Source: a virus (taxonomy: Duplodnaviria > Heunggongvirae > Uroviricota > Caudoviricetes). Taken from it: a stretch of DNA of 64,000 nt. Below the pieces are notes generated by a model. That model had not been told where the DNA came from and made no database searches. It saw nothing but the letters and a program-made list of their open reading frames with translations. Made by a program: the position numbers and the translations under genes. Below, in pieces: positions 3,006 to 61,703 of this stretch. The stretch lies in IMG/VR virus record IMGVR_UViG_3300048588_000114, positions 15,309 to 79,308 of that record. One strand, given 5' to 3'. Position 1 is the first letter of the stretch. The number at the start of each line of letters is the position of its first letter.

Positions 3006-3224
3006 ATGGCTAGTCAAATCATAATCATTGAGAAAGCAGACAATGGGAATATATCCTATACTATAAACCCTAAAGAAGACATTCATTCTGTTGTTGGTGC
3101 TCTCCAGTTAGTTAGGAGAGTATTGGAAGCACAAATGGTCAGTGAAGTTTTATCAGCTAAAGCTATTGATAAAACTAACGATCATGATAATCAACATCAA
3201 CAATCTGAAGCAAACCCAAGCTAA
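3006..3224 (+). CDS. hypothetical small protein
   Basis: 72 aa ORF immediately after previous stop. Confidence 0.35.
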   Translation: MASQIIIIEKADNGNISYTINPKEDIHSVVGALQLVRRVLEAQMVSEVLSAKAIDKTNDHDNQHQQSEANPS

Positions 3225-3786
3225 ATTAGGCCATAAGTGGTTTGAAGATCAGCCTAACATCATCGGTATTAGAACTACTCTATGTATTCCTGATCAATTT
3301 AATGATGTATTAGCCATTGTCTATCGGGCAGATGGTAAAACCGGAGAAGAAAAGATATTCACTGCCATTATCACTACTGAGCCTGGCACAACTTATCAAA
3401 AAAAGCTATTAAATCCACGTGGTTGTGCTGTTATGCAACCCGGTCAATTCATTAATGCCTATAAGTTGGGCTATCATCAAGGAAAGAAAGACCATCGCTG
3501 TCTAAAGCAGGTAGGGAAGATTCTTTTGAAAAGAGATAAAGACTTGGATGGCATCCCAGGAAACTCAGGAGTTGTAGAGTGGAACACTGACGCCGGATGT
3601 AATATTCACGGAGCTAATAAGGGTCAAGTCACCGCAGCTATTGGGCCGTGGAGTGCTGGCTGTCAGGTTCACGAGAGATGGAGTAAAAAAGAAGAAATGT
3701 GCGATATAGCTCAAATCTACGAGAAAGTCAATAATGGTCTTCTGACTTACAGTCTTGTAGAGGAGCGATATATGGTGTCCGCTTAA
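3184..3786 (+). CDS. putative cell-wall-active enzyme with L,D-transpeptidase(YkuD)-like His...SxGC motif; candidate lysin
   Basis: CNIHGANKGQVTAAIGPWSAGCQVHE resembles the YkuD catalytic His-x(16-18)-S-x-G-C-[IV]-[RH] signature. A terminator follows at 3839-3867. Confidence 0.4.
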   Translation: MIININNLKQTQAKLGHKWFEDQPNIIGIRTTLCIPDQFNDVLAIVYRADGKTGEEKIFTAIITTEPGTTYQKKLLNPRGCAVMQPGQFINAYKLGYHQGKKDHRCLKQVGKILLKRDKDLDGIPGNSGVVEWNTDAGCNIHGANKGQVTAAIGPWSAGCQVHERWSKKEEMCDIAQIYEKVNNGLLTYSLVEERYMVSA

Positions 3787-4171: not shown

Positions 4172-4232
4172 CGCTCAACCGTGGTGCCCGCCGGGTCTAA
4201 AAGCCTATATAGCTAAGAATAAAACAAAATAA
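4104..4232 (+). CDS. DUF3820-like domain (ExoX C-terminal / Qsr-like small domain)
   Basis: MPWGKHQGTRLGSIPADYYEWL matches the MPFGKYKGxxLxEIPxxYLxWL signature of DUF3820. ATG at 4104 lies inside ORF 4047-4232. Confidence 0.45.
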   Translation: MPWGKHQGTRLGSIPADYYEWLDAQPWCPPGLKAYIAKNKTK

Positions 4233-4233
4233 A

Positions 4234-4566
4234 TTGGGCTACGTCTACATACTCCATTTTGATAAGCCCTATAAGCATGCGGCTCACTATATTGGCTATG
4301 CTATAAAGGATTGGGAAGCGAGAATAGATGAGCATCGTAGAGGAATTAGCCGTGTAAGAATAATGGAAGTTATCAAAGCTGCTGGAATAGGCTTTGAGGT
4401 GGCTAAAGTATTTAAAAGAGTTCCGAAGACCTTTGAAAGGAAGTTAAAGAACCGTCACGGAGCGTCAAAGATATGTCCTATATGTAAAAAGAATAATCAT
4501 GGCAAAACAATACATAGTAAGAATCAACAAAAACCTCCGTTGGGAGGGAATGAAACCTTGGTATGA
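4234..4566 (+). CDS. GIY-YIG-like nuclease-domain protein with C-terminal Cys cluster
   Basis: GYVYILHF ... YIGYA ... RIDEHRRG fits the GIY-YIG core with conserved Arg/Glu. C-terminal CPICKKNNHG. Confidence 0.45.
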   Translation: MGYVYILHFDKPYKHAAHYIGYAIKDWEARIDEHRRGISRVRIMEVIKAAGIGFEVAKVFKRVPKTFERKLKNRHGASKICPICKKNNHGKTIHSKNQQKPPLGGNETLV

Positions 4567-5374
4567 CGCTTATCAGGAAGAGAAATTCCAAGTAAAGGAG
4601 AACTCAATCACTGATTGGGCACTAACCGATAAAGAATGGTGTCAAAAATATTTAGGAACCTCAACGGCTACGATTGATAAACGTCATTGCTCAGTAGTAT
4701 CTGAGGTCATTGAGAAGTTCTCTCCAGCAGTATTAGCTAAAGAATCAACTGATCAGGTTGAGAAATACCGTAAAAAGTATGGAGATAGGACAGGCAATGC
4801 TCTATCATCCCACTTAAATAGGGGAGAAAAGACTGTTTTTGAAAAAGCTATTAGTGAGACAACTGATAAGATACAAGAAATGGCAGATAAAGTGATGGAG
4901 AAAGATGGTTCACCTAAGGTTGATCTAACAAAGCAACCAACCCATTTCTCAGGCATGTTTGAACAACATTCAGAGAAGGTAGATGATAAAGCGATATATG
5001 GCGAGTGCGCTAGACATCCCGGTAACAATATGGTTGATTGTATTGAATGTTCTACAGAAGAAGCGACAATTGGCGATATTGGTCTAAAAACAAAGAAATC
5101 TGACTTTGAGAAACTTGAGGAGCCTAAAGATAAGAGCCGCAAACTACAAGACAAGGTTGCTCAGCCTGATAAAGAAACAGTAAAGAGACCCCCGCTTGGC
5201 GTGATACCTCGTTTTATCTATGAAGAGAAACGCCGTGAGCATCTTAAAGATGGTATGATTAGATTCTTAGAAGCTGGTAAGAAGTTAAATGATGAGTGGA
5301 TAGATGAATACAATGAATTAACCGATAAGATTGACGCCCGTCAACGGCTCGAAGAATCAAAAGCAAAGAAGTAA
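4499..5374 (+). CDS. hypothetical acidic protein
   Basis: 291 aa ORF; true start may be the internal ATG near 4550. Confidence 0.55.
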   Translation: MAKQYIVRINKNLRWEGMKPWYDAYQEEKFQVKENSITDWALTDKEWCQKYLGTSTATIDKRHCSVVSEVIEKFSPAVLAKESTDQVEKYRKKYGDRTGNALSSHLNRGEKTVFEKAISETTDKIQEMADKVMEKDGSPKVDLTKQPTHFSGMFEQHSEKVDDKAIYGECARHPGNNMVDCIECSTEEATIGDIGLKTKKSDFEKLEEPKDKSRKLQDKVAQPDKETVKRPPLGVIPRFIYEEKRREHLKDGMIRFLEAGKKLNDEWIDEYNELTDKIDARQRLEESKAKK

Positions 5375-5589
5375 TGTCAGAGAAACAAACTAAAGGCAAG
5401 AGCCTCCTTGAATCAATTGTAAATACGGCAGTTGGATATGCTGTTACTGTTATATTTAGCCCACTTATCTACTGGATTTGTGATGTTAAAGTGAACTTTA
5501 CCCAGATAAATCTAATAACAATCTTGTTCACATTCTTATCAATAGGAAGAAACTATGTTGTGAGGCGTTGGTTTAATAAAATTAGTTAA
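5374..5589 (+). CDS. small membrane protein
   Basis: 71 aa with two hydrophobic segments; ATGTCAG overlaps upstream stop. Confidence 0.45.
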   Translation: MSEKQTKGKSLLESIVNTAVGYAVTVIFSPLIYWICDVKVNFTQINLITILFTFLSIGRNYVVRRWFNKIS

Positions 5590-5936: not shown

Positions 5937-5980
5937 CTTTGAAATATATTTGGTTTATGGGGAAATTCGCCTTATCTTAG
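5937..5980 (+). promoter_or_regulatory. Bacteroidetes-type promoter (-33 TTTG, -7 TATCTTAG)
   Basis: CTTTGAAATATATTTGG, then a 20 nt spacer, then TATCTTAG, about 27 nt upstream of the ATG at 6008. Same architecture at 7670, 9183, 24614 and 42223. Confidence 0.55.
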
Positions 5981-7669: not shown

Positions 7670-7700
7670 TTTGGTTTTAGCTAAAAAGTCCGTATCTTAG
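7670..7700 (+). promoter_or_regulatory. Bacteroidetes-type promoter (TTTG, 19 nt spacer, TATCTTAG)
   Basis: GTTTGAAATATATTTGGTTTTAGCTAAAAAGTCCGTATCTTAG upstream of ATG at 7736; near-identical to the 5937 and 9183 copies. Confidence 0.55.
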
Positions 7701-9182: not shown

Positions 9183-9214
9183 TTTGGTTTTTAGCTAAAG
9201 ACCCCTTATATTTG
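9183..9214 (+). promoter_or_regulatory. Bacteroidetes-type promoter (TTTG, 20 nt spacer, TATATTTG)
   Basis: AGTTTGAAATATATTTGGTTTTTAGCTAAAGACCCCTTATATTTG; the -7 box is a perfect TAnnTTTG. Confidence 0.6.
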
Positions 9215-10324: not shown

Positions 10325-10353
10325 TAAGAGGTTGTTTTGAGGAGCCAAATCGA

Positions 10354-10386
10354 AGCCCCGCCCTAATCCGGCGGGGTTTTCTTTTG
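10354..10386 (+). terminator. rho-independent terminator
   Basis: CCCCGCC-CTAATCC-GGCGGGG hairpin followed by TTTTCTTTTG. Confidence 0.65.
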
Positions 10387-10765
10387 CCCTTAATCGTTCC
10401 CCCGGAGGGAAAGAGACCCGGTTGAGGCAAATCTAAATACAACCCCGATAAACACTCAAATAAGCCCTATAAGCAACGTTCAACCCTCAGCCCAATACAA
10501 AGTCCATCCGTTCACCCGCCAACCTAAAAATCACCTTAAAACAAAGATTTAGTGTTGGGAACATCAAACATATGAATCAATCTAACTTAAAACTGTCCAA
10601 GCCCACCGAAGAGCCGAAGAACTCAACCTCAAGAATACGACCCAGACCCCGGAGATAAGGGAAGGTAAGACCACTAACACCCCTGAGCAGTTATAGGCTA
10701 CTAAGAGACACCCTTGAGTGAACAATGTTATATAAGGTGTTTATGTACTCTAATGAATCAAACAT

Positions 10766-24613: not shown

Positions 24614-24645
24614 TTTGGTTTCTGTGTAAAGATCGCTTAACTTAG
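24614..24645 (+). promoter_or_regulatory. Bacteroidetes-type promoter (TTTG, 20 nt spacer, TAACTTAG)
   Basis: AAATAAATTTGGTTTCTGTGTAAAGATCGCTTAACTTAGTGG upstream of ATG 24673; near-identical to the copy at 42223. Confidence 0.55.
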
Positions 24646-29134: not shown

Positions 29135-30028
29135 ATGAGCAATGACGAATATCAACACCAAAACACCTTTAAGAATATGAAAAGAGCTATTGTAATACAA
29201 GGCGGGGGTAGTTACGGAGCATACACTGCTGGCCGTATCTGTCGCCGAAAACTCAATTATGACGCTGCCGTAGGTAGCTCAACAGGTGCGCTAATTGCGC
29301 CTTTCGCTCTCTTAGGACAATATAGTGTTCTAGAAACCGGATACACAACCATTGGAAATAAAGAGATTTATTCAAGAACTCCATTCTGGGGTGACGGAAT
29401 ACCTAAGGTTTATTTGGCTCTTTGGTCTTGGATTAGGCAGAAAAAGGGCATCACTGATTCAAAACCGCTCCGCAAACTAATCGGGCAACTTTACACTCAA
29501 AAGATGCATGAATCCATCCCAGCACTAGGAAAGAAGCTATATGTGACTGGTTGTAATTTAAACTCCAATGTAACACCATCAAAATACTATGATTCGGCGG
29601 CATATACTTGGGAACAGTACTGTGATCTAATCTGGGCCTCAACGCTGGTTCCCGGACTACTTGAGCCCTACCATTCAGATTTACCCATCTTCAAAGGTAT
29701 AGATATGGTAGATGGTGGAACAACTGAGAATGTTGGAATGCGTGTTATAACTAATAAGAATTATGACTTCGTAGATATTTACCTTCATAATACTATCAAA
29801 TACGGCATGAAAGAGGAGGGGAAGAACTGGATTCACAACCTCATCCGGGCTTTAATCATTCAGCGAGAAGAAGTCATAAATGATGATTTGTATAGTAATT
29901 TAGATGGGATTAATCATAAAATACACTACCTACCTAAACCTTTGGAAGGGGCTGGGGCTATGGATTTTCAACCAAAAGTGATGCGTAAATGGTTTGATCA
30001 AGGCTTCCACGCTAATGTGGATTCTTAG
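29135..30028 (+). CDS. patatin-like phospholipase
   Basis: Oxyanion-hole GGGSYGAYTAG, nucleophile elbow G-S-S-T-G (GxSxG), and the catalytic Asp motif DGG in VDGGTTENVG. Confidence 0.8.
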   Translation: MSNDEYQHQNTFKNMKRAIVIQGGGSYGAYTAGRICRRKLNYDAAVGSSTGALIAPFALLGQYSVLETGYTTIGNKEIYSRTPFWGDGIPKVYLALWSWIRQKKGITDSKPLRKLIGQLYTQKMHESIPALGKKLYVTGCNLNSNVTPSKYYDSAAYTWEQYCDLIWASTLVPGLLEPYHSDLPIFKGIDMVDGGTTENVGMRVITNKNYDFVDIYLHNTIKYGMKEEGKNWIHNLIRALIIQREEVINDDLYSNLDGINHKIHYLPKPLEGAGAMDFQPKVMRKWFDQGFHANVDS

Positions 30029-30272
30029 TAGACTTATTGTGACGCCTACGGGTAGCTTGTTGAATAAGATTATCAATGCGCTCCTGTAGAGCCGCCTTGT
30101 CTTCACGAAGTTCATTGATTTGTCTTTCGTAGAGTTCAATTAGACGGTCATCTTTCTTGGAGGCGTTTTTATTCCGCTCAGTAAGGTAATTCCAGATAGC
30201 TTGACGCTTGAAAATACCTATAACAGCTAAGAAAATTGATCCAATAGTGGTGTATATTTGTGTGTCGCTCAT
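30012..30272 (-). CDS. small single-TM plus coiled-coil protein (i-spanin-like topology), the only credible minus-strand gene
   Basis: MSDTQIYTTIGSIFLAVIGIF TM, then heptad-rich ELYERQINELREDKAALQERIDNLIQQA. Convergent with patatin gene, overlapping its 3' end. Confidence 0.4.
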   Translation of the reverse strand: MSDTQIYTTIGSIFLAVIGIFKRQAIWNYLTERNKNASKKDDRLIELYERQINELREDKAALQERIDNLIQQATRRRHNKSTKNPH

Positions 30273-30320
30273 AAAATTACGATAACTGAAAACACTAAAC
30301 AATTAAAAATAAACAATATC

Positions 30321-30803
30321 ATGAATTTAGAGAAAATCTATGTTAAATTAACATCTGCATCTAATAAGGGCAATGTTTACCTAAGCCCAGACATCAAGCC
30401 TCAGGCACTCGTAGAAAGTGTCTATAAATCAAGTTCTGAATCTGAAGGTGTCCCAGTGGTGTCTATATATTTTCCTGGTAATATGCATATGGTGACTGAA
30501 ACCATAGAGCAGATAGTTGAGCAATATGAGAAGAAGCGCACCAAAGCTGTGTCTAACTACTTTTCAAAAGATGTGTTTGGTGAGATTGAGGAAGGAGCCT
30601 ATAATATGTCTAGCAAAGGAACACGCCCTACCAAAACAATCATTGGTCAAACTAAATTTCAAGAGCTAATTGATGGAATTATACCCAAAGAAGAGCAGAC
30701 CGGACAGGAATATGAGCATATAAGTGGTGTGGCGTTAATCACTCGTTTTGGTGTTCTATTGCTCGAAGAATCTAAAGAGGCCACTGAACTAAAAGTAAGT
30801 TGA
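30321..30803 (+). CDS. hypothetical protein
   Basis: ORF 30258-30803; ATG 30321 (MNLEKIYVKL) is the likely start. Confidence 0.5.
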   Translation: MNLEKIYVKLTSASNKGNVYLSPDIKPQALVESVYKSSSESEGVPVVSIYFPGNMHMVTETIEQIVEQYEKKRTKAVSNYFSKDVFGEIEEGAYNMSSKGTRPTKTIIGQTKFQELIDGIIPKEEQTGQEYEHISGVALITRFGVLLLEESKEATELKVS

Positions 30804-30845
30804 TTCACAGTTATAAACAAAGAGAAGCCACTAAAGGCTAATATT

Positions 30846-31163
30846 ATGAAAAAATCAGTCCTTATCCTCTGTTGTGCGCTCCTATTAGGAGCCTGTAACA
30901 GCGTTGCGGCTGGCTATTCACGCGCCCCTGACCGGGACGTAGGCCAGAACTACGAAAGTGTAAGCGCACCTGCGCACGATGTATTTGTGATCAACGAACA
31001 GTACGGCCAGGAACTACCTACCGCCGTGGATTTCGGAGCAGCTGTAGAGATACCTGCGCCGGAGGAAACCACCGGATATGGAGTGACCGCCAATGCAAAA
31101 CCGATAAGCCCCGGATTAACCCGGAAAATCTACCTGCTGAATTGCTCCATTAGGCAGTGTTAG
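30846..31163 (+). CDS. lipoprotein
   Basis: MKKSVLILCCALLLGAC signal peptide with lipobox LLGAC; two C-terminal cysteines. Confidence 0.55.
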   Translation: MKKSVLILCCALLLGACNSVAAGYSRAPDRDVGQNYESVSAPAHDVFVINEQYGQELPTAVDFGAAVEIPAPEETTGYGVTANAKPISPGLTRKIYLLNCSIRQC

Positions 31164-31186
31164 TTTAATCACAAAAAGTTTAGTCA

Positions 31187-31220
31187 AACCCCCACCGCAA
31201 GTGGGGGTTTTTGATTTTTT
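31187..31220 (+). terminator. rho-independent terminator
   Basis: AAACCCCCAC-CGCAA-GTGGGGGTTT followed by TTGATTTTTTT. Confidence 0.7.
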
Positions 31221-31277
31221 TAGCCACCACAGTTCCCCAGAGTTATTGTGGATATAACCATAAAAACAAATAAAAAT

Positions 31278-32780
31278 ATGATTACAACAGCAATTACCAT
31301 CGGAGTACCAGCAGTATTGGCGCTCATCATCATTCTCTACGTCTTTACCCTGAGACGCATTGTGCCCACTAACGTAGTGCACATTGTACAAAGAGGAAAG
31401 AACACTGTATCCTACGGAGTAGGCAAGGGGGACAACGTTTACTACGCATTTCCAAGCTGGATGCCTGTTATAGGCGTAGTTGTGCGTGAACTTCCAGTGT
31501 CTAACTTTGGGATAGACCTACATGAATACAATGCCTACGACAAGGACAGGGTGCCTTTTGTAGTAGATATCAAGGCGTTCTTCCATATTTCTGACACTAA
31601 TAAGGCGGCAGAGAAGGTTGAATCCTACGAAGAACTGGAGAAGCACCTTGAGAACGTGGTTCAAGGTTCCGTTAGGTCTATCCTTGCGCAGTCCAAGTTA
31701 GAAGAAATCATGGAAGGACGTTCAGAATTTGGGGAAAAGTTTACGTCCAATGTTAAGAGTGACCTGCTTCAATGGGGAGTTGAGCCAATCAAAAACATCG
31801 AACTCATGGATGTCCGGGATGCTAAGGAATCTACGGTCATTAAACAGATTATGGCGAAACGGATGTCGGCAATTGATTCTGAATCACGCACGGAGATAGC
31901 TAAGAACAAGCAATCAGCGGAGCAGGCAGAATTAGCTTCCAAACAAGCCATCGCTGTAAGTGCTGCCGAAACCAACCTAAAAATAGGAGAAGCGCAAGCT
32001 CAATCTGACCAAGCTGTAGCTATTGCAAAGGCTGAAAGTGAGAAGAAAGCTGGTATCGCTAAGCAAGAATCCATTGCTGAGGTTGCCAAATCAGAGAAAG
32101 ACACTGCTGAGAAACAGATGGATGTAATTCGCACTAAACAGACTAAGCAGGCAGAGATTGACAAAGAAACGGCCATCATCGCATCAGAACAGGAAGCCCG
32201 TCAGATGGAGATTAAAGCAGAAGCAGCCAAGAAGCAGCTTGAAATCCAGACCAACGCTAACAAAATGAAAGTTGAGACCGATGCGGAAGCCCGGAGAATA
32301 GCCACCGAGAAGGACGCAGCAGCCCTGCTTATTAAACAGGAGAATGAAGCCAAAGGTAAGGCAGCAGTTGGTAAGGCAGAAGCATCCATCATTGAAGCCA
32401 AAGGTACAGCGGAAGCAGAGGCTAAGAAACTTTATGAATTAGCCAGTGTAACCGCTCAGACTACTCTCGCTAAGGATATTGGTGACAATAAGGAATACCA
32501 AACCTACATGATCGAACTGAGAAAGGTTGAAATGAATGAGAAAATAGGTGTTGCACAGGCTGAGAATCTCGCAGTAGCGATGAAAGATGCTGACCTGAAA
32601 GTTCTCGTTAATAGTGGGGACGTACATTCAGGCATTGGTAAGCTATCCGACCTTTTCACCTCTAAAGGTGCTTCTCAGCTAAACGGCCTAATTGAAGGCT
32701 TGGGACAAACTGAAGGAGGTCAGGCTATCGTAGACCTTTTAGATAAAATCGGTGTGAAATTACCAACTAAAGCTAAGTAA
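31278..32780 (+). CDS. flotillin-like SPFH/band-7 domain membrane protein
   Basis: N-terminal TM ITTAITIGVPAVLALIIILYVF, SPFH-like core (VVHIVQRGKNTV...), then a long Ala/Glu/Lys-rich coiled coil (AEAEAKK) typical of flotillins. Confidence 0.75.
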   Translation: MITTAITIGVPAVLALIIILYVFTLRRIVPTNVVHIVQRGKNTVSYGVGKGDNVYYAFPSWMPVIGVVVRELPVSNFGIDLHEYNAYDKDRVPFVVDIKAFFHISDTNKAAEKVESYEELEKHLENVVQGSVRSILAQSKLEEIMEGRSEFGEKFTSNVKSDLLQWGVEPIKNIELMDVRDAKESTVIKQIMAKRMSAIDSESRTEIAKNKQSAEQAELASKQAIAVSAAETNLKIGEAQAQSDQAVAIAKAESEKKAGIAKQESIAEVAKSEKDTAEKQMDVIRTKQTKQAEIDKETAIIASEQEARQMEIKAEAAKKQLEIQTNANKMKVETDAEARRIATEKDAAALLIKQENEAKGKAAVGKAEASIIEAKGTAEAEAKKLYELASVTAQTTLAKDIGDNKEYQTYMIELRKVEMNEKIGVAQAENLAVAMKDADLKVLVNSGDVHSGIGKLSDLFTSKGASQLNGLIEGLGQTEGGQAIVDLLDKIGVKLPTKAK

Positions 32781-34969: not shown

Positions 34970-35035
34970 GCAATTGTATAGCGGTTCTTGTGGATTTTGC
35001 TGGCTTTGTGAGATTTGTTAGCAAGATTAGATTAG

Positions 35036-38016: not shown

Positions 38017-38057
38017 ACAATAATTCAGCTATAATCCTGATAAGGTTAAGTAATGCT

Positions 38058-38090
38058 AAAAGGGTGGGGCTTAGGCTTCACCCTTTTTGT
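38058..38090 (+). terminator. rho-independent terminator
   Basis: GGGTG-GGGCTTAGGCTT-CACCC followed by TTTTTG. Confidence 0.55.
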
Positions 38091-38118
38091 TCATTGTTAT
38101 TTATCAAAAGTACTAATT

Positions 38119-39855
38119 ATGCTAAAGAGTAGCATTGACCTAAGTGTGCCTAAATTGATCTTACCTAACACAGCAAATGCTTCGTATGGTAGGAACGATG
38201 TGGTAACACTAGACCAAGCACGTGAAGTTTACCGGGTTGTAGATGACCTCATTGATGGACTGGATGATGTGTCCCTTGATTTGCTATTTAGTGCCTCAGA
38301 GCATGATGTAGACAGGGTTTTATCCACTTTCTTTGAAGAATCATATGCTGTAATGTATGGCGGTGAGACACGTATCAAGGAAACATCTGTCAATTATCTG
38401 GAGAGATTATCTGAGAATATAGAAGAAGTATTGAGGGTTGAGAATTTCAACTATTTCCTAACCAATGTTCTCACTAATTTTGATATAAATTGGCACCACT
38501 TAGAGTGGGGGAGTTTAGCTCAGAATAATCGCTTCACTAATTTTATTGCTCCACGTGACCACGGAAAGACCTATTTTTTCTCTAATGCAATGACTTGTTG
38601 GCGTCTTTATCGCTATAAAGACCCGGATAGTGTAGCTAGACATCTAAGAAAAAGAAATGAACTTAATCGAAAAGGCTTCATTATCACTAATGAGATGGAG
38701 TTGGCCGAAGAAATCTTAGAGACTGTAAAGAATACCATAGAGGAACATGATATTTTACATGAAAGGCTCTATCCTAATACAAAAGACAACTGGTCAAAGC
38801 GTAGTATTAAGTGTAAAAACGGAGCAAGAGTAGGTTTAAAATCCTACGGTGGTAGCTTCCGGGGGCGCCACCCCGGTTGGATTACAGTGGATGACTTCTT
38901 AAAAGACAATGTGCTCTATTCTGAGGTTCAAAGAAAGAAAGCAATCGACTACTTTCACTCAGTAATTATGAATGCTATTTCTCCGGGTGGTAGCGTTACT
39001 GTAGTTGGAACACCATTCCATCAAAATGACCTCTACGGAGACCTAAAGACCAAGAAAACTTGGAAATGCTTTGAATATCCTGCTATTACTCCGCATGGAG
39101 ATGTATTATGGAGAACCCGTTATTCCTATAAAGACCTTATTGAGAAGCGTGAGGCGCAAGGAAATATCATTTTCTCTCGTGAAATCTTAGTTGTACCCAT
39201 ATCAAGCAACTCTACTTTATTCCCTTGGAATGTATTGAAGCGTTGTTTCATAGGTATGCAAGACTACACATTAGTGAAAAATAGAGATTCATTCCCTAAG
39301 AAATTCACAAAAGTAGTAACTGCTTGTGATTTCGCAAGAAGCGCCAATGTAGGTGCTGATTATTCAGCATTTACAACTTGGGGGATAGACGAGAATGAGG
39401 ATATGTGGCTATTGCATATCTGGAGGGCTAAAGGTCGGTCATTCCGTGATCAAATCAATGCCGTTAAGTCAATAAACGCTAACTTCAGGCCAGATGTAAT
39501 TGTGATGGAGGTCAACCAATTCCAGCAGATTATGGCTGATATTGCTGAAGAAGAAGGATTAACCAATGTTGTTCCACATACTACTACTGGTAAGAATAAG
39601 CATGACTTTATCATCGGTGTTCCGGGCTTAGCTATCCTATTTGAGAAAGGAAAAATACACATACCACGTGGAGATCAGTACAGCCGGGATGCCTCTGATG
39701 TTCTCATGTCTGAATTAAGTGCGATAGCATGGACAGATGAGGGAATACAGGGTGTTGGAGAGCATGATGATATGGCTATATCTACTTGGTTGGGAACAAT
39801 TGGAGCAAGAAAAATAGGTGTTGGCTTTGGACTTAGCTTCTTAGCGGCAGCATAA
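38119..39855 (+). CDS. terL: terminase large subunit (TerL)
   Basis: ATPase Walker A FIAPRDHGKTYFFS and Walker B ITVDDF. C-terminal RNase-H-like nuclease acidic motifs VVTACDFARS...DYSAFTTWG, DVIVMEVNQFQ and GEHDDMAIS. Confidence 0.85.
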   Translation: MLKSSIDLSVPKLILPNTANASYGRNDVVTLDQAREVYRVVDDLIDGLDDVSLDLLFSASEHDVDRVLSTFFEESYAVMYGGETRIKETSVNYLERLSENIEEVLRVENFNYFLTNVLTNFDINWHHLEWGSLAQNNRFTNFIAPRDHGKTYFFSNAMTCWRLYRYKDPDSVARHLRKRNELNRKGFIITNEMELAEEILETVKNTIEEHDILHERLYPNTKDNWSKRSIKCKNGARVGLKSYGGSFRGRHPGWITVDDFLKDNVLYSEVQRKKAIDYFHSVIMNAISPGGSVTVVGTPFHQNDLYGDLKTKKTWKCFEYPAITPHGDVLWRTRYSYKDLIEKREAQGNIIFSREILVVPISSNSTLFPWNVLKRCFIGMQDYTLVKNRDSFPKKFTKVVTACDFARSANVGADYSAFTTWGIDENEDMWLLHIWRAKGRSFRDQINAVKSINANFRPDVIVMEVNQFQQIMADIAEEEGLTNVVPHTTTGKNKHDFIIGVPGLAILFEKGKIHIPRGDQYSRDASDVLMSELSAIAWTDEGIQGVGEHDDMAISTWLGTIGARKIGVGFGLSFLAAA

Positions 39856-41977: not shown

Positions 41978-42000
41978 CAAAATAAATTCTTATCTAAAGA

Positions 42001-42031
42001 GGAGGGGAGCCAAGCGGTTCCCCTTTTTTTA
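42001..42031 (+). terminator. rho-independent terminator
   Basis: GGAGGGGAGCCAAGCGGTTCCCC followed by TTTTTTT. Confidence 0.6.
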
Positions 42032-42222
42032 TTGCCGTTTTGGTGGTAAATTCTGCCTAAGGGAAATGTTAGGCAGTTAGCCAATACTTTACTTGCCCCG
42101 GAGGTTAAAACGGCATTAAAAGCAAAATATCAATAGTGATCTAACTTTAGCTATTCAAAGCAAAATTCTCCCATTGACTAACAGCACGTTACGTTCAAAA
42201 TTCAAAGTTTATCCAAAATAAA

Positions 42223-42254
42223 TTTGCTGCTTGTATCAAAAATTATTACCTTAG
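42223..42254 (+). promoter_or_regulatory. Bacteroidetes-type promoter (TTTG, 20 nt spacer, TACCTTAG)
   Basis: AAATAAATTTGCTGCTTGTATCAAAAATTATTACCTTAGTGG upstream of ATG 42304. Confidence 0.5.
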
Positions 42255-42303
42255 TGGCGATAGTCAAAGAAAACACCATTATTAACCAATAAAACCGCAA
42301 TTT

Positions 42304-45302: not shown

Positions 45303-45593
45303 TCCTAAGCAACAACAGTTATACAAAGTTATCGGTTTCTCAAGAGCAAGACATGGTGTACTGAGTTTGTAGTAGGTTCTCCACTTCACCCGCTTGCAAC
45401 ACTATACTGAATCTAAGTTGGCAATTTAATTAGCCGTTTTCAGATAGAGGTCATTAGACTTACACTTTGTAGGTTTTGTCCACCTTTTATCTCCCACTAC
45501 CTGAATAGTACAGAAAGTTGCTGTTCACATGTGAGACGACCAATCAACGTTAATTCCCCTTACAAATTAGTGACTTTTTAGCCCTTATTCCAT

Positions 45594-53496: not shown

Positions 53497-55149
53497 ATGG
53501 CTGGAAATAAGTTAGAGAAACTAATTCAATTAGAGCAAAAAGTAGGTAAACTAAAGGACAGGGAGATTGAAAAAGCCCTTTCCTCTAGCGACCCTAATGA
53601 GCTCATAAAAGCCCACTTAGCTTTCCAGAAGCAAGTAGAGGCACGTCAAGATCACGGCCACAAAGCATATCTGGTTGACCCTAATGAGTTCCAAAGTTCT
53701 TTTGGCTACAAAGATCGACCAGTCAATTTGTCCTATAATATGCTGAAGGGAATGGCGAGAGTGCCTGTAATTAATGCGGTCATAAAGACCCGTATCAATC
53801 AGGTTGCTGCTTTCTGTGAGCCTCAGAAGAATGAATATAGTGTTGGCTATGTTATTCGAAAACGTAAACTACCCGGTGAGAACTCTCCTACTAAAATGAC
53901 TAAGGATGAGAGACAGGAAATTTATGATCTTCAGGATTTCATGGAGAATTGTGGGGAAACAAATGTCTGGGGTGCTGATGATTTTGATGCTTTCTGTAGA
54001 AAGATAATCAGAGATAGTCTTGTATTTGATCAAATGACCTTTGAAGTAGAGAGGGACAGAAGAGGAAAGCCAGTGGCTTTTTATGCTGTAGATGCTTCTA
54101 CAATGAGACTATCTGAAAGTTTCGATGATCAGAACTATGAGCAGTATAAGAACACAATCAATGTAGGTACGAAGATAGCTAAGGTTCAAAATTACTATCC
54201 TTCCTATGCTCAGATATTGGATGGTAGTGTACATGAGCTATTTTATCCATGGGAAATGTGCTTTGGTATTCGGAATCCCACTACTGATGTTACAATGTCA
54301 GGATATGGAGTTTCTGAGTTAGAAGAATTAGTGTCTGTGGTTACATCTCTTGTCTGGGGAGAAGAATATAACAGACGTTTCTTCAAGCAAGGTTCTGCGC
54401 CTAAGGGTATTCTTAGGATTTCAGGCTCAATGCCTGATCATAAATTGAATGAGTTTAGGCAGAATTGGAACTCCACTATGCGTGGTGTCCAAAACGCCCA
54501 CCGAACTCCGGTTCTCGAAGCAGAGAAAGCTGATTGGATTGATCTTCAGCGCAATAATCGGGACATGGAGTTCACTCAATGGATGGAGTTCCTAATTAAG
54601 GTAGCTTGCGCCATTTATACCATAGACCCTTCTGAGATTAACTTCCCTATGAGTGGCTCAGCTGGCTCTTCTCCTATGTTTGGAGAAAACAAAGAGTCAA
54701 CATTGAAGTTTTCTCAAATGAAAGGTCTTTATCCCATCCTAAAGTTCCTACAAAAACGCATCAATAAGTATCTTATTCAGCCACGCAATCCTAAGTATGA
54801 GTTTGCTTTTGTTGGTTTAGATGCGATGACACCTAAGGAACAAGCCGAACTGGATGAGAAGTCAGTTAAAACCTACAAGACGGTGAATGAGTTGAGGAAA
54901 GAAAAGAACCTCAAGCCATTGCCGGGCGGGGATATATTGCTTGATTCTACTTTCGCTAGGGCTGTAAATGCAGAGAAACAGAGACAAATGATGGATGATA
55001 GCCAAGGATATGAGGACGGCGGTGCCGGGGCAGAAGAAGCCATTATTTCAGGTAAATATCCCGGCGGTGAGGCTGAGGAAGAACTGGATAAAAATAATCC
55101 AATTATCAAATCCTTAGAGGAGTTCTTGATTGGCATCAATACGAAATAA
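53497..55149 (+). CDS. candidate portal protein
   Basis: 550 aa at the head of the capsid-morphogenesis block; size and position are typical. No decisive motif. Confidence 0.45.
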   Translation: MAGNKLEKLIQLEQKVGKLKDREIEKALSSSDPNELIKAHLAFQKQVEARQDHGHKAYLVDPNEFQSSFGYKDRPVNLSYNMLKGMARVPVINAVIKTRINQVAAFCEPQKNEYSVGYVIRKRKLPGENSPTKMTKDERQEIYDLQDFMENCGETNVWGADDFDAFCRKIIRDSLVFDQMTFEVERDRRGKPVAFYAVDASTMRLSESFDDQNYEQYKNTINVGTKIAKVQNYYPSYAQILDGSVHELFYPWEMCFGIRNPTTDVTMSGYGVSELEELVSVVTSLVWGEEYNRRFFKQGSAPKGILRISGSMPDHKLNEFRQNWNSTMRGVQNAHRTPVLEAEKADWIDLQRNNRDMEFTQWMEFLIKVACAIYTIDPSEINFPMSGSAGSSPMFGENKESTLKFSQMKGLYPILKFLQKRINKYLIQPRNPKYEFAFVGLDAMTPKEQAELDEKSVKTYKTVNELRKEKNLKPLPGGDILLDSTFARAVNAEKQRQMMDDSQGYEDGGAGAEEAIISGKYPGGEAEEELDKNNPIIKSLEEFLIGINTK

Positions 55150-55499: not shown

Positions 55500-55916
55500 A
55501 TGTTTTATAGTCTAATCCTCAAATCGAAGCAAACGTTTATGTGGTCTCATTTCTTAGTGTTTTTGGTGTCGTTGATTATGCCAATCCTGCCAGCAATAGT
55601 GATAACTGGTGTTCTCATCTTCACTGATTTTGCTACTGGCTTATATGCGGCTCACAAAACTAAGAAACGCATCACTTCAAGCAGGATGAGAGACACTATT
55701 GATAAGATATTTGTCTATAATACAAGCATCATACTTGCTTATTTGATAGAGAGATACATGCTTCAGGGGGCTTTTCCGGTTCTCCGTGTAGCGCTTGGCT
55801 TTATCGCATTAGCTGAGTTCAAATCAATTTCTGAGAATTTCCATAAAATAACTGGGATAAATCTACATAAGAAGATTTTATCCTATTTGAAAAAGAAACA
55901 CGACTTAGAACTTTAG
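55500..55916 (+). CDS. multi-TM small membrane protein (holin-like)
   Basis: 138 aa with 3 predicted TM helices (FLVFLVSLIMPILPAIVITGVLIF, SIILAYLIERYM, VALGFIALAEF). Confidence 0.45.
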   Translation: MFYSLILKSKQTFMWSHFLVFLVSLIMPILPAIVITGVLIFTDFATGLYAAHKTKKRITSSRMRDTIDKIFVYNTSIILAYLIERYMLQGAFPVLRVALGFIALAEFKSISENFHKITGINLHKKILSYLKKKHDLEL

Positions 55917-55922
55917 ATAATA

Positions 55923-56192
55923 ATGGCTTTCGGCGTTAAACATATCGTAAAAGAGACCCCTAAATGGGCAACTTGGATGTTCAGAATTGTCTTGGCTCTG
56001 ACTACAGCGGCGTCAATATGGATAAGCGGAACATCCATCATTGAGGATTCTATAAAAGTAGAAATAATCAATGGCTTGAAAGTTTTCGACTGTTTAGCTT
56101 TAGTATTTTCTAAAATGTTCGGTGTTGATGTAAATGTAACCACTGATAATGAAGGAAATGAACAAACTACAGACGAAACACCCGCTAATTAA
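55923..56192 (+). CDS. small single-TM protein
   Basis: WMFRIVLALTTAASIWISGTSII TM; charged C-terminus. Confidence 0.4.
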   Translation: MAFGVKHIVKETPKWATWMFRIVLALTTAASIWISGTSIIEDSIKVEIINGLKVFDCLALVFSKMFGVDVNVTTDNEGNEQTTDETPAN

Positions 56193-56919
56193 TCTAAAAA
56201 ACATTATTATTCTGTTGCTCCTCTTAGCTGTAATGGCATTAGGAGCAATAGTTATGTTAAATAACAACCGAAGTATTAGTCCTAGTCAATATAAGGCATT
56301 AGAGGACTCAATTCATTCCTATCGGGATAAGGATGGTAATCATATAGCTACCATTCGATCTTTAGAGTTTGCTAATGCTAAGCAACTTTTGCGTCTTGGA
56401 GCACAAGATAGCTCCATTAGATGGTTACAGCAATCTATGAGGGATTTTAAAGGTGAAGTTAGGGCTGCTATAGTATTGGGCATAAATACAGTATCTCAAG
56501 GGTCATCCTCTACTACAATTTTACCCGGAGACACCATTAGAAGTGGCGACACTCTCAAGCTATATCCGCATTATGAGACTAATTGGTCTAATAAATGGGA
56601 ATTAGGGCACATCAAGGCCACTAAAGATTCTATATTCAGAAATATAAAAACTATCAATGAGTTAGAGATTATTACAGGGTATCAGAAGAATCGTTGGATA
56701 TTCTTCAATTCTCCAGACCTTGAGGTGAAAGTCAAAAATCTAAATCCTAACACAGTCACTCAAGAGCTAAGAAGTTTCAACGTTAAAAACGAAACAAACA
56801 GGTTCAGCTTAGGAGCGAGTGGGGGAGTCATGTGGATACCGGGATTAAATCCTAAGCCGTACATAGGTATTGGAATCAATTACGACATAATAAGATTCAA
56901 GAAGTGGCGAAAACGCTAA
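56149..56919 (+). CDS. signal-anchored periplasmic protein (lysis accessory candidate)
   Basis: N-terminal IIILLLLLAVMALGAIVML TM followed by ~220 aa soluble domain. Confidence 0.5.
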   Translation: MKEMNKLQTKHPLINLKNIIILLLLLAVMALGAIVMLNNNRSISPSQYKALEDSIHSYRDKDGNHIATIRSLEFANAKQLLRLGAQDSSIRWLQQSMRDFKGEVRAAIVLGINTVSQGSSSTTILPGDTIRSGDTLKLYPHYETNWSNKWELGHIKATKDSIFRNIKTINELEIITGYQKNRWIFFNSPDLEVKVKNLNPNTVTQELRSFNVKNETNRFSLGASGGVMWIPGLNPKPYIGIGINYDIIRFKKWRKR

Positions 56920-59969: not shown

Positions 59970-61703
59970 ATGAAGAAGAATAATAATTTCAAATTCTGGG
60001 TTCCCTTAGAATTTTCCAAGGCTAAGAATGAAACCACCGGAGAAGTTGAGATGAAAATAGGCGGGATTGCCTCTACATCAGCGAAAGACAGCGATGATGA
60101 GGAATTAGACCCGGCAGGTTTTGATCTCAGTGTCCTAAAATCCCATGGTGTCATCAATTGGCACCACATGCAAAAGACCAATCCAGATGCGATTATTGGC
60201 GAACCCACTAAGGCAGAACTAACTCCAAAAGGGTTGTATTTAGAGGCAAAGCTCTATCCAGATAGTGAATTAGCTAAAAAAGTTTACAAATTAGCTGAAG
60301 TTTTAGCTAAAAATTCTAAAACCCGTAGACTTGGATTTTCCATCGAAGGCAAGAAGACAGAAGTTGACCCTAATGATGAAACAAAAATCCTGAAGGCAAA
60401 GATCACCGGGTGCGCCATCACCTATCTTCCAAAGAATCCTACCACATTTGCTGATATCATCAAAGGTCATGAGGTTGAGGAACCTATCTATGAATTTGAT
60501 GAGGAGATAGAAAAAAGTGACCTTTCAATCAAGGCATTGAATAACGCCGCTAATGGCGGTGCAGTTAAATTCTTAGTAAATCTAACGACCAAGGACGGAA
60601 AGACCGTGAAGGTCACTGAAGATGGTGAAATAACAGTTGATATGTCTAAATCATTAACAACAGAAGCCGGGAGCGGGGGTGCTCTCAAGAAAGAGCATGT
60701 AGATTCAGGGCTCAAGGAAACAATCAAAACAAGTGATAAACCTAAGGAATTAACAAAAGCCGAAGCCTTTGATAAAATATTTTCTGATTTCCCAGATATA
60801 GACATTCAAAAGGCTAAGCAAATTTTCAATACAACAACTAAAATTACTGCCATGAGCAAAGAAAAAACCAAACCTACAAAGGATGAAATCGAGAAGGCCT
60901 ACGCTGTTTTAGGTCTCAACAATGAATCAGAAGATGATAACATTGAAAAAGGCGAAAACACTACCGAATCAGAAGATGAGGTAAAACCGCCAGCAAAGAA
61001 ACCAGCAGCACCAGCTAAAACAGCTACTGTTGAAAAAGGTGGAGGCGACAAAGGCCCAGATGAAGAAGAGGAGGAAGAGGAAGAAGAGGACGAAGAACCA
61101 GCGAAACCAGCAAAAAAAGATATGAATAAAGCACAATCCAGCGACCTGATGTATTTCCAGAAGGGCGACAATTACGTAGCCATGGTAAACAAAGGCGGCG
61201 AACTTCAGGAAGTCCCTGATAAATTATTCCAAAAGACCGCAAGCGGCTACCAGGAAATCATCAAAACCCCTATCGAGAAATCAATTGAAGAAAACATTGG
61301 AAAACTGCTCAATGGCCAGTCAGACCTTCAAAAAGCTATCGGTGTAGTGGTTGGTGACCTGAAAGCTCAGGTAAGTGGTCTGCAAAAACAGGTGGAAGAA
61401 ATGAGTGGACAGCCCACAGGCCGTAAATCGGCTACAAACGCCACAGTGAAAGAAAAGAAATTTGCTGGTGCAAATGATGACCTTACCAAAGGCCGTACCG
61501 ATGGCAAGACCCTCTCTATCAAGAATCGTAACGCAGTATTGTCAGTGCTTGAGAAAGCAATGTACTTGCCGCTTGAGAAAGGCCAAGGTGGTCTCGATGC
61601 TGGTTTTGAGAAAGCAATGACCACTTTTGAAGCCAGCGGGCAGATTTCTGCACAAAACGTAGGCCGTCTTGAGCGTGAATTCGGAATATTCCTCGTGGAC
61701 TAA
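59970..61703 (+). CDS. prohead protease (HK97 gp4-like) fused to scaffold-like C-terminal region
   Basis: N-terminal KIGGIASTS...DPAGFDL...INWHH...LGFSIEGK resembles the HK97-family prohead protease core. C-terminal half is coiled-coil with poly-Glu tract EEEEEEEEDEE. Confidence 0.6.
   Translation: MKKNNNFKFWVPLEFSKAKNETTGEVEMKIGGIASTSAKDSDDEELDPAGFDLSVLKSHGVINWHHMQKTNPDAIIGEPTKAELTPKGLYLEAKLYPDSELAKKVYKLAEVLAKNSKTRRLGFSIEGKKTEVDPNDETKILKAKITGCAITYLPKNPTTFADIIKGHEVEEPIYEFDEEIEKSDLSIKALNNAANGGAVKFLVNLTTKDGKTVKVTEDGEITVDMSKSLTTEAGSGGALKKEHVDSGLKETIKTSDKPKELTKAEAFDKIFSDFPDIDIQKAKQIFNTTTKITAMSKEKTKPTKDEIEKAYAVLGLNNESEDDNIEKGENTTESEDEVKPPAKKPAAPAKTATVEKGGGDKGPDEEEEEEEEEDEEPAKPAKKDMNKAQSSDLMYFQKGDNYVAMVNKGGELQEVPDKLFQKTASGYQEIIKTPIEKSIEENIGKLLNGQSDLQKAIGVVVGDLKAQVSGLQKQVEEMSGQPTGRKSATNATVKEKKFAGANDDLTKGRTDGKTLSIKNRNAVLSVLEKAMYLPLEKGQGGLDAGFEKAMTTFEASGQISAQNVGRLEREFGIFLVD

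Follow-up and report, generated by a model that had tools for sequence, protein, structure and literature searches.

Antiholins and holin partners such as T4 RI and RIII, lambda S107 and P1 LydB are small, and their genes lie in or near lysis cassettes; the known ones act on the inner-membrane holin to set the time of lysis. RI is periplasmic and has a releasable signal anchor, RIII is soluble and acts from the cytoplasmic side, and S107 is an N-terminally extended isoform of the holin; the lysis genes of T4 are scattered and separately regulated. Here we describe a gene of 86 codons (the antisense gene) that runs against its neighbours in a 64,000-nucleotide stretch of tailed-phage DNA, positions 15,309 to 79,308 of IMG/VR record IMGVR_UViG_3300048588_000114 (this whole stretch is referred to as the window). 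Profile comparison places it, as a divergent member, in a widespread family of phage lysis-cassette proteins that is new and carries no annotation. With a probability of about 0.5, we read its product as a bitopic coiled-coil membrane protein of this lysis-linked family that would control lysis timing at the inner membrane, whether as an antiholin, a holin partner or a second holin.

The family resembles the antiholins and holin partners in its small size and in its position in or near lysis cassettes. The cytoplasmic action of RIII corresponds to the predicted side of the family's coiled coil, and the scattered lysis genes of T4 resemble those of the window. Nevertheless, the window protein has no sequence similarity to RI, RIII, S107 or LydB, and to our knowledge none of these four combines a single N-out anchor with a coiled coil. 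The likeness to holins with a single transmembrane (TM) domain (class III-type) lies in a length of about 80-90 residues, one hydrophobic helix, a strongly charged, basic C-terminal region and, in most relatives, adjacency to an endolysin gene. The window protein differs from them in that no Pfam or NCBIfam holin model matched it and a Phage_holin_4_1 gene lies elsewhere in the window; moreover, the hydrophobic core is only 12-16 residues long and most family cassettes also carry a two-TM protein resembling a primary holin. Finally, and in architecture only, the family recalls the PhiX174 lysis protein E, which has some 90 residues, an N-terminal helix of N-out/C-in topology and, beyond it, a basic cytoplasmic part. 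Protein E differs in being the product of the sole lysis gene of a small single-stranded DNA phage and in inhibiting MraY, whereas the phages of the family encode endolysins and holins; there is no sequence similarity between them.

The antisense gene and the neighbouring patatin gene

The antisense gene occupies what would otherwise be a gap of 292 nucleotides (nt) between plus-strand genes. The features of the gene, its product and the adjoining phospholipase gene are as follows.

30012-30272, minus strand: antisense coding sequence, 86 residues; ATG 30272-30270, stop TAG 30014-30012; product MSDTQIYTTIGSIFLAVIGIFKRQAIWNYLTERNKNASKKDDRLIELYERQINELREDKAALQERIDNLIQQATRRRHNKSTKNPH
30210-30257, minus strand: membrane anchor, codons 6-21, hydrophobic IYTTIGSIFLAVIGIF, with the acidic tip MSDTQ before it and KRQAIW after it
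30051-30152, minus strand: heptad-repeat coiled coil, codons 41-74, DDRLIELYERQINELREDKAALQERIDNLIQQAT
30015-30050, minus strand: basic C-terminal tail, codons 75-86, RRRHNKSTKNPH, the divergent counterpart of the family's (T/L)KSRGKK motif
29135-30028, plus strand: patatin-like phospholipase gene, 297 residues (Pfam Patatin, E 3.4e-15)
30012-30028, no strand assigned: convergent overlap of the 3' ends of the antisense and patatin genes, 17 nt

A preliminary description of this DNA had called here a minus-strand open reading frame (ORF) of 87-96 residues, the only antisense gene among the confident calls, which converges on the patatin stop and overlaps it. This picture holds. Read from the ATG, the ORF encodes 86 residues plus a stop; read from an alternative upstream TTG at 30302 (30012-30302, minus strand), it encodes 96. 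The ATG at 30272 is the likely start codon: the homolog on a syntenic contig (L001, see below) starts 2-5 residues ahead of the hydrophobic stretch, as do the JGI gene call and every one of the 113 family members. The convergent overlap amounts to 17 nt common to both genes. When shadows of plus-strand genes are excluded, every ORF of at least 100 residues in the window is on the plus strand, and a greedy gene call places 106 genes in the window, seven of them on the minus strand; the six besides the antisense gene are ORFs of 40-61 residues that fill gaps. The antisense gene is the sole credible minus-strand gene among about 100 in the window.

A search of 5.8 billion proteins returned the window protein itself and one close relative, P0002 (90 residues, 80-81% identity). 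P0002 is encoded on L001, a 34-kb Logan contig that is syntenic with window positions 22-40 kb at 66-76% nucleotide identity, and in the public gene call for L001 no gene but the homolog lies on the minority strand (1 of 35). The two antisense genes can be aligned codon by codon without gaps. They share 80% of their amino acids and 76% of their nucleotides. Of the 62 differences, 12 fall at first, 8 at second and 42 at third codon positions, and the Nei-Gojobori method (NG86) gives an omega of 0.07, which equals that of the best-conserved neighbour and is below that of most neighbours. The remaining five frames contain 3-11 stops in both genomes. The conservation in relatives that the preliminary description had proposed as a check is thus found in the L001 copy, and the substitution pattern argues that the antisense ORF is almost certainly a genuine protein-coding gene under purifying selection. 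A chance ORF in an intergenic or promoter region might have been suspected here, as the region also has conserved plus-strand promoter-like boxes, and minus-strand shadow ORFs of about this length are found at other places in the window. We regard this explanation as effectively ruled out, because of the third-position bias, the low omega and the fact that this is the only open frame in both genomes; in addition, the product belongs to a family of 113 clusters, whose profile it matches at E 2e-26 in a local hmmsearch (E 8e-29 in the profile search; single copy in the window). The same pair of patatin and antisense genes was seen in a second metagenome (JGI 3300048834, L003:3992-4252), with the substitution K22T directly after the anchor.

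The N-terminal TM helix and heptad-repeat coiled coil proposed for the protein likewise stand up to inspection. Residues 6-21 are hydrophobic, although 16 residues make a short span; hydrophobic residues from L44 to I70 recur at a spacing of 3-4 by inspection of the sequence; and AlphaFold2, run with the family alignment, returned one continuous helix over residues 3-82, with a mean predicted local distance difference test (pLDDT) score of 80.7 and about 95 over residues 50-70. The product shows part of the operational features of a holin, namely those of a small protein with at least one TM helix, here a short one, and a charged C-terminal domain, here the basic tail. Searches with the window protein against Pfam, PHROG, NCBIfam, PADLOC and PDB sequences gave sub-threshold coiled-coil noise (SieB, ZapB, TolA-like names and Toxin A repeats). 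The JGI label of the gene is 'membrane protein involved in colicin uptake'.

The antisense gene is independent of the patatin gene. In L001 patatin is absent and its slot is filled by an unrelated ORF of 66 residues (L001:10245-10445), which the antisense gene overlaps by 29 nt. The left junction of this slot is conserved through the first two codons (ATGAGC), and on its right the slot meets the 3' end of the antisense gene, with an overlap in both genomes. Judged from this comparison, patatin is cargo that can be exchanged, and the conserved element, core to the lineage, is the antisense gene. A search of IMG/VR with the back-translated patatin found none. The motifs GGGSYG, GSSTG and DGG of the window patatin are intact, and it has a weak match to the PADLOC 'phospholipase effector' (E 2.6e-5).

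These observations bear on the alternative that the product is a cis-antisense RNA, or that convergent transcription lowers patatin expression, with the ORF being incidental. The antisense orientation and the 17-nt convergent overlap with the patatin 3' end agree with such a function, and some transcriptional interference is possible as a side effect. However, patatin regulation cannot maintain the antisense gene, because L001, which lacks patatin, keeps the gene and keeps it antisense. A cis-antisense RNA should show no frame constraint and a conservation tied to its target, and what is seen is strong constraint at the protein level in a gene retained without that target. The 113 homolog clusters, and the co-directional arrangement of the homologs with their neighbours in 9 of 11 lineages, speak against it as well, as does the shortness of the overlap. 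Rfam gave no match for the antisense region, RNA folding at the overlap is no more stable than that of shuffled sequence (z = -1.3), and a small hairpin that takes in the two stop codons (30006-30021) stays within the background of shuffled sequences. We therefore consider the control of the phospholipase by antisense RNA, which the preliminary description had put forward, to be highly improbable.

The protein family and its lysis-gene neighbourhood

An exhaustive HMMER search with a two-sequence profile found five distant homologs of 73-107 residues (E 5e-8 to 2e-5), and a seven-sequence profile then retrieved 113 protein clusters, mostly of 81-86 residues, none of which has a Pfam domain or a meaningful name. 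There are 58 family loci in IMG/VR. All members are confined to phage contigs, from crAss-like and other Bacteroidota-type phages. Searches (tblastn) of the isolated phages in INPHARED with the window protein, P0039, P0013 and the two-TM neighbour described below gave nothing significant, and the family was not found in GTDB, taken at one genome per species, so that there are no prophage copies there and no direct host assignment. The family seems to occur only in uncultured phages, which are probably lytic, and we found no description of it in the literature.

Members of the family share a characteristic charge pattern. The 2-5 residues of the N-terminal flank contain 111 D/E against 4 K/R across 111 members. 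The hydrophobic core that follows is 12-14 residues long in most members (16 in the window protein) and presents a conserved G...A-x-x-G face, after which come the motif KGKD(I/V)W(D/E)Y(L/F)K and an average of 3.8 K/R in 15 residues. The coiled coil varies in length, with proteins of 81-119 residues, and both ends are conserved. A C-terminal KSRG-type motif, usually (T/L)KSRGKK, is present in 98 of the 113 members, and the last 12 residues hold a mean of 4.6 K/R versus 1.3 D/E. The window protein belongs to this family by its full-length profile match and by the conserved G/A-x-x-G anchor, W27 and R33; the anchor columns G11, A16 and G19 are conserved, and together with W27 and R33 they make up the invariant columns of the family. 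With KRQAIWNYL after the anchor of the window protein, and motif regions that are substituted but still basic in both, the window and L001 proteins are, by alignment, a divergent subgroup.

The surroundings of the family were sampled by contig look-ups and from the 58 IMG/VR loci, with our own ORF calls and clustering, and family proteins grouped at 75% identity were treated as lineages (n = 11). On crAss-like contigs, where neighbours carry Pfam crAss ring, muzzle and capsid domains, the family gene starts 2 nt past the stop codon of an Amidase_2 endolysin gene. In L006 a Peptidase_M15_3 protein takes the slot held elsewhere by Amidase_2. Other members of the crAss-like lineage have in the -1 slot a 182-residue protein that matches phrog_3000 and phrog_33083 ('endolysin'), and some have instead a GH24 Phage_lysozyme at +1. 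Enzymes of the GH19 type, some of them with PG_binding_1, occur at +1 (L058), +2 (L064), +3 (L075), -1 (L070) and -4 (L008 and L077). A peptidoglycan hydrolase thus lies within four genes of the family gene in 6 of the 11 lineages, and a hydrolase or the two-TM protein does so in 8. With one endolysin per about 100 genes, the rough expectation by chance is about 8% per lineage, and 6 of 11 would then have a probability of the order of 1e-4, a figure to be read with the proviso that the lineages are not fully independent samples. Because five unrelated hydrolase families replace one another around a constant small gene, a functional link between the family and phage lysis is very probable on this genomic evidence.

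Two further kinds of small protein recur in these cassettes. The first is a two-TM protein of 74-86 residues, without database annotation, that stands at +1, +2, -2 or +4 in seven of the sampled contexts and carries the motifs ..SSKRVCG.. and ..LAFGCLGLxxxDKF. The second, in the L075, L064, L077, L004 and L058 cassettes, is a separate TM plus coiled-coil protein of 70-94 residues with a basic N-terminus, often followed by a small lipoprotein. By their layout, such pairs would fit the two-component spanin pattern better than does the family of the antisense gene. In all, three further unannotated families recur in the cassettes (two-TM holin-like proteins, basic-N TM plus coiled-coil proteins and small Cys-containing lipoproteins); examples are found at L004:8267-8512, L077:5066-5320, L075:5274-5926 and L064:5359-5993.

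Antisense placement was seen in one other sampled lineage, represented by L070, a non-syntenic 90-kb IMG/VR contig on which the family gene is divergent from a PG_binding_1 plus GH19 endolysin gene. On the far side of that endolysin gene, a second small TM ORF (96 residues, L070:3856-4146) lies on the same minority strand.

Predicted topology and role in lysis

The acidic N-terminal tip and the basic KGK or KR directly after the anchor point to an N-out/C-in topology for the family, which would leave the coiled coil and the basic tail in the cytoplasm. This prediction is central to the alternative that the protein is an i-spanin of the lambda Rz type, in which an N-in anchor in the inner membrane is followed by a coiled coil that crosses the periplasm and binds an o-spanin lipoprotein of the outer membrane; the resulting complex fuses or disrupts that membrane as lysis is completed. 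Such a protein also has an N-terminal anchor and then a coiled coil, and is also encoded in lysis cassettes; the variable length of the family's coiled coil between conserved ends, and the lipoprotein-like gene at 30846-31163, two genes away in the window, are further points of agreement. Against this, the N-terminal tip is essentially never basic and the KGK after the anchor favours a cytoplasmic C-terminus, opposite to the i-spanin arrangement, while 81-86 residues are short for spanning the periplasm. An o-spanin gene is expected to be embedded in, to overlap or to follow directly on that of its i-spanin. The window lipoprotein gene is on the other strand, beyond a gene for a 160-residue protein, and the lipoproteins of the relatives pair with the different, basic-N TM plus coiled-coil protein present in the same cassettes (e.g. 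L075 and L064). An i-spanin function is therefore rather unlikely. The preliminary description had proposed a small membrane protein that acts as an i-spanin or as an antiholin-like regulator; the general form of this proposal is supported by purifying selection and by membership of a lysis-cassette family, the i-spanin version is disfavoured by the charge pattern and the separate pairs, and the antiholin-like version becomes the best guess.

With spanin pairs encoded separately, the two-TM protein as the natural holin candidate and the charge pattern of the family, an antiholin or holin-partner mechanism is suggested, in part by elimination; we would put its chances a little short of even. 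In this mechanism, the anchor, with its conserved small-residue A-x-x-G face, would pack against the helices of the holin, the coiled coil would oligomerise the protein and the basic tail would sit on the cytoplasmic leaflet. In the window phage and in one relative, transcription from the opposite strand might let the timing of the antisense gene differ from that of every other gene.

The lysis genes of the window itself are relevant to this reading, and its two main candidates are the following.

3142-3786, plus strand: putative endolysin, a homolog of the crAss-type '-1' protein (35% identity, E 6e-33; phrog_3000/phrog_33083)
55500-55916, plus strand: Phage_holin_4_1 protein (Pfam, 39 bits against a cut-off of 22)

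The Phage_holin_4_1 gene is followed by genes for two TM proteins (55500-56919, plus strand), and a two-TM DUF7220 protein is encoded at 5374-5589 (plus strand). Lysis candidates are thus scattered over the window, and the antisense gene at 30 kb, like that of its relative, is unlinked from those for endolysin and holin.

Several points count against a role in lysis timing. In the window lineage there is no hydrolase or holin gene within about 8 kb, the nearest candidates being 25-26 kb away, and the gene does not adjoin an endolysin gene, a holin feature that its homologs show in 6 of 11 lineages. L012, the P0086 contig and L062 are without recognised lysis neighbours, and the incomplete independence of the 11 lineages weakens the statistics. 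The window and L001 proteins lack KGKD and KSRGKK and have KRQA and RRRHNKS(T/S)KNP instead; a hydrophobic core of 12-16 residues is short for a membrane span; and no Pfam, NCBIfam, PHROG or PADLOC model of a holin, antiholin or spanin matches. Charge-based topology is a rule of thumb, and lambda Rz, too, carries basic residues after its anchor. The searches for a promoter or terminator of the antisense gene gave no convincing candidate. Lastly, the functional assignment is drawn entirely from gene neighbourhood and architecture.

Alternatively, the protein might have another role at the membrane, in superinfection exclusion or host takeover with expression from a promoter of its own, or, in the window phage, in envelope remodelling together with the patatin, the lipoprotein and an SPFH/Band_7 protein; proximity to lysis genes elsewhere would then only reflect an accessory region shared by membrane proteins. 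The independent orientation in two lineages, the three or four lineages without a recognised lysis neighbour and the envelope-directed neighbours in the window (patatin, lipoprotein and Band_7) are in keeping with this. In L013 and L014, two unrelated loci, a Band_7 gene also lies at a distance of about 5 kb from that of the family. SieB (PF14163), itself a small phage membrane protein, is the best, albeit weak, Pfam match of the window protein. At 15 bits against a gathering cut-off of 26 (E 0.019), this match is not significant and membership of SieB was rejected. Moreover, patatin is dispensable cargo, and near-translational coupling to endolysins of five types amounts to non-orthologous replacement around a constant gene, which counts against such a role. 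We consider another membrane role unlikely, though worth keeping in view, and retain the control of lysis timing as the preferred reading.

Transcription and genome setting

The window is part of a tailed-phage genome, with genes for the large terminase at 38053-39855, the portal at 53497-55149 and the prohead protease at 59970-61703. By terminase, its closest isolates are the Bacteroides thetaiotaomicron phages DAC19, DAC20, DAC22 and SJC03, at 36.7% identity. Window genes have A-rich leaders without Shine-Dalgarno sequences, and six intergenic plus-strand sites match the Bacteroidota promoter pattern TTTG-N18-22-TAnnTT[TA]G. On the strength of these three signs, the host of the phage is likely to be a member of the Bacteroidota. 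A DNA search of a 2.4-kb region against isolated phages was without match. The promoters and the genes beyond the start of the antisense gene are these.

5949-5980, 7670-7700, 9183-9214, 24614-24645, 35005-35035 and 42223-42254, plus strand: six promoters, 28-62 nt upstream of start codons
30295-30302, minus strand: candidate -7-like box TTGTTTAG, 22 nt upstream of the antisense ATG, with one mismatch to the Bacteroidota TAnnTT[TA]G
30253-30290, plus strand: possible weak promoter, TATATTTG (30253-30260, inside codons 5-7 of the antisense gene), a 22-nt spacer and TAACTGAA (30283-30290)
30321-31220, plus strand: divergent two-gene unit, encoding a 160-residue protein (30321-30803) and a 105-residue lipoprotein-like protein (30846-31163, MKKSVLILCCALLLGAC), with a terminator
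31186-31220, plus strand: intrinsic terminator, stem-loop 31186-31210 plus T tract; 10-bp stem with six G-C pairs
31248-32780, plus strand: SPFH/Band_7 membrane protein after the terminator, 510 residues, combining an N-terminal TM helix with a long helical region rich in Ala, Lys and Glu

Five of the six plus-strand promoters have a common extended consensus, aaaaTA[TA]ATTTGgttt ... cTTAnCTTAGTgG, and these five are probably one temporal class. Four plus-strand stretches of 291-441 nt are free of ORFs (10325-10765, 4172-4498, 41978-42303 and 45303-45593) in a genome that is otherwise tightly packed; Rfam and transfer RNA scans of the whole window, these stretches included, were empty.

Since it lies on the opposite strand, the antisense gene would have its own promoter and, with it, separate timing. 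The preliminary description had proposed, as a check, a search for a minus-strand TAnnTTTG near 30300-30340. An exact match to this motif is absent both there and upstream of the gene, where only the one-mismatch box TTGTTTAG was found. This candidate is weak, having no -33 TTTG at the correct spacing; L001 carries a perfect TATGTTTG at the same offset. A scan of the window for the full -33/-7 pattern recovered the six plus-strand sites, none of which serves the antisense gene, and scans for sigma-70-type promoters and terminators around the gene were at background level.

On the plus strand, L001 and L002 each retain both TATATTTG and TAACTGAA. The distance between these boxes resembles that between the -33 and -7 elements in the six clear promoters, and the pair ends 30 nt before the ATG at 30321, although TAACTGAA, as a -7 box, has two mismatches. 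The antisense start codon falls between them. The two boxes may form a weak promoter of the two-gene unit, with head-on interference with the antisense gene, a suggestion that is speculative. The use of TATATTTG at 30253 as a -7 box was considered and rejected, for in the six clear promoters TA[TA]ATTTG is the -33 element. The order of the two-gene unit is kept in L001, where the stem of the terminator is identical (L001 9062-9028, minus strand) and its loop differs. The only homolog of the 160-residue protein is that of L001, and AlphaFold2 gave it a pLDDT of 45 from two sequences.

Taken further, and offered only tentatively because we find it doubtful as a whole, the family could be an undescribed class of lysis regulators of Bacteroidota phages, including crAss-like phages, in which the N-out anchor, cytoplasmic coiled coil and tail gate a co-evolving two-TM holin. 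Head-on transcription might then work as a timer by which lysis control sets in when one transcription unit is shut off, both the window phage and L070 having the gene on the opposite strand and the window start being interleaved with the candidate plus-strand promoter boxes at 30253-30260 and 30283-30290.

Annotation of the lysis systems of Bacteroidota phages, among them the abundant crAss-like phages of gut and freshwater, is poor; in a survey of flavobacterial phages only 'proteins with TMDs' could be listed next to the lysins (PMC8776804). Here, a family defined by sequence (113 clusters) stays put while five types of endolysin swap around it, and the antisense gene of the window is unusual only in its unlinkage from other lysis genes and in its direction of transcription. 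The result gives a better annotation for a gene that carries a colicin-uptake label, and the family, together with the three recurrent cassette components, provides concrete holin, antiholin and spanin candidates for the phages of Bacteroidota.

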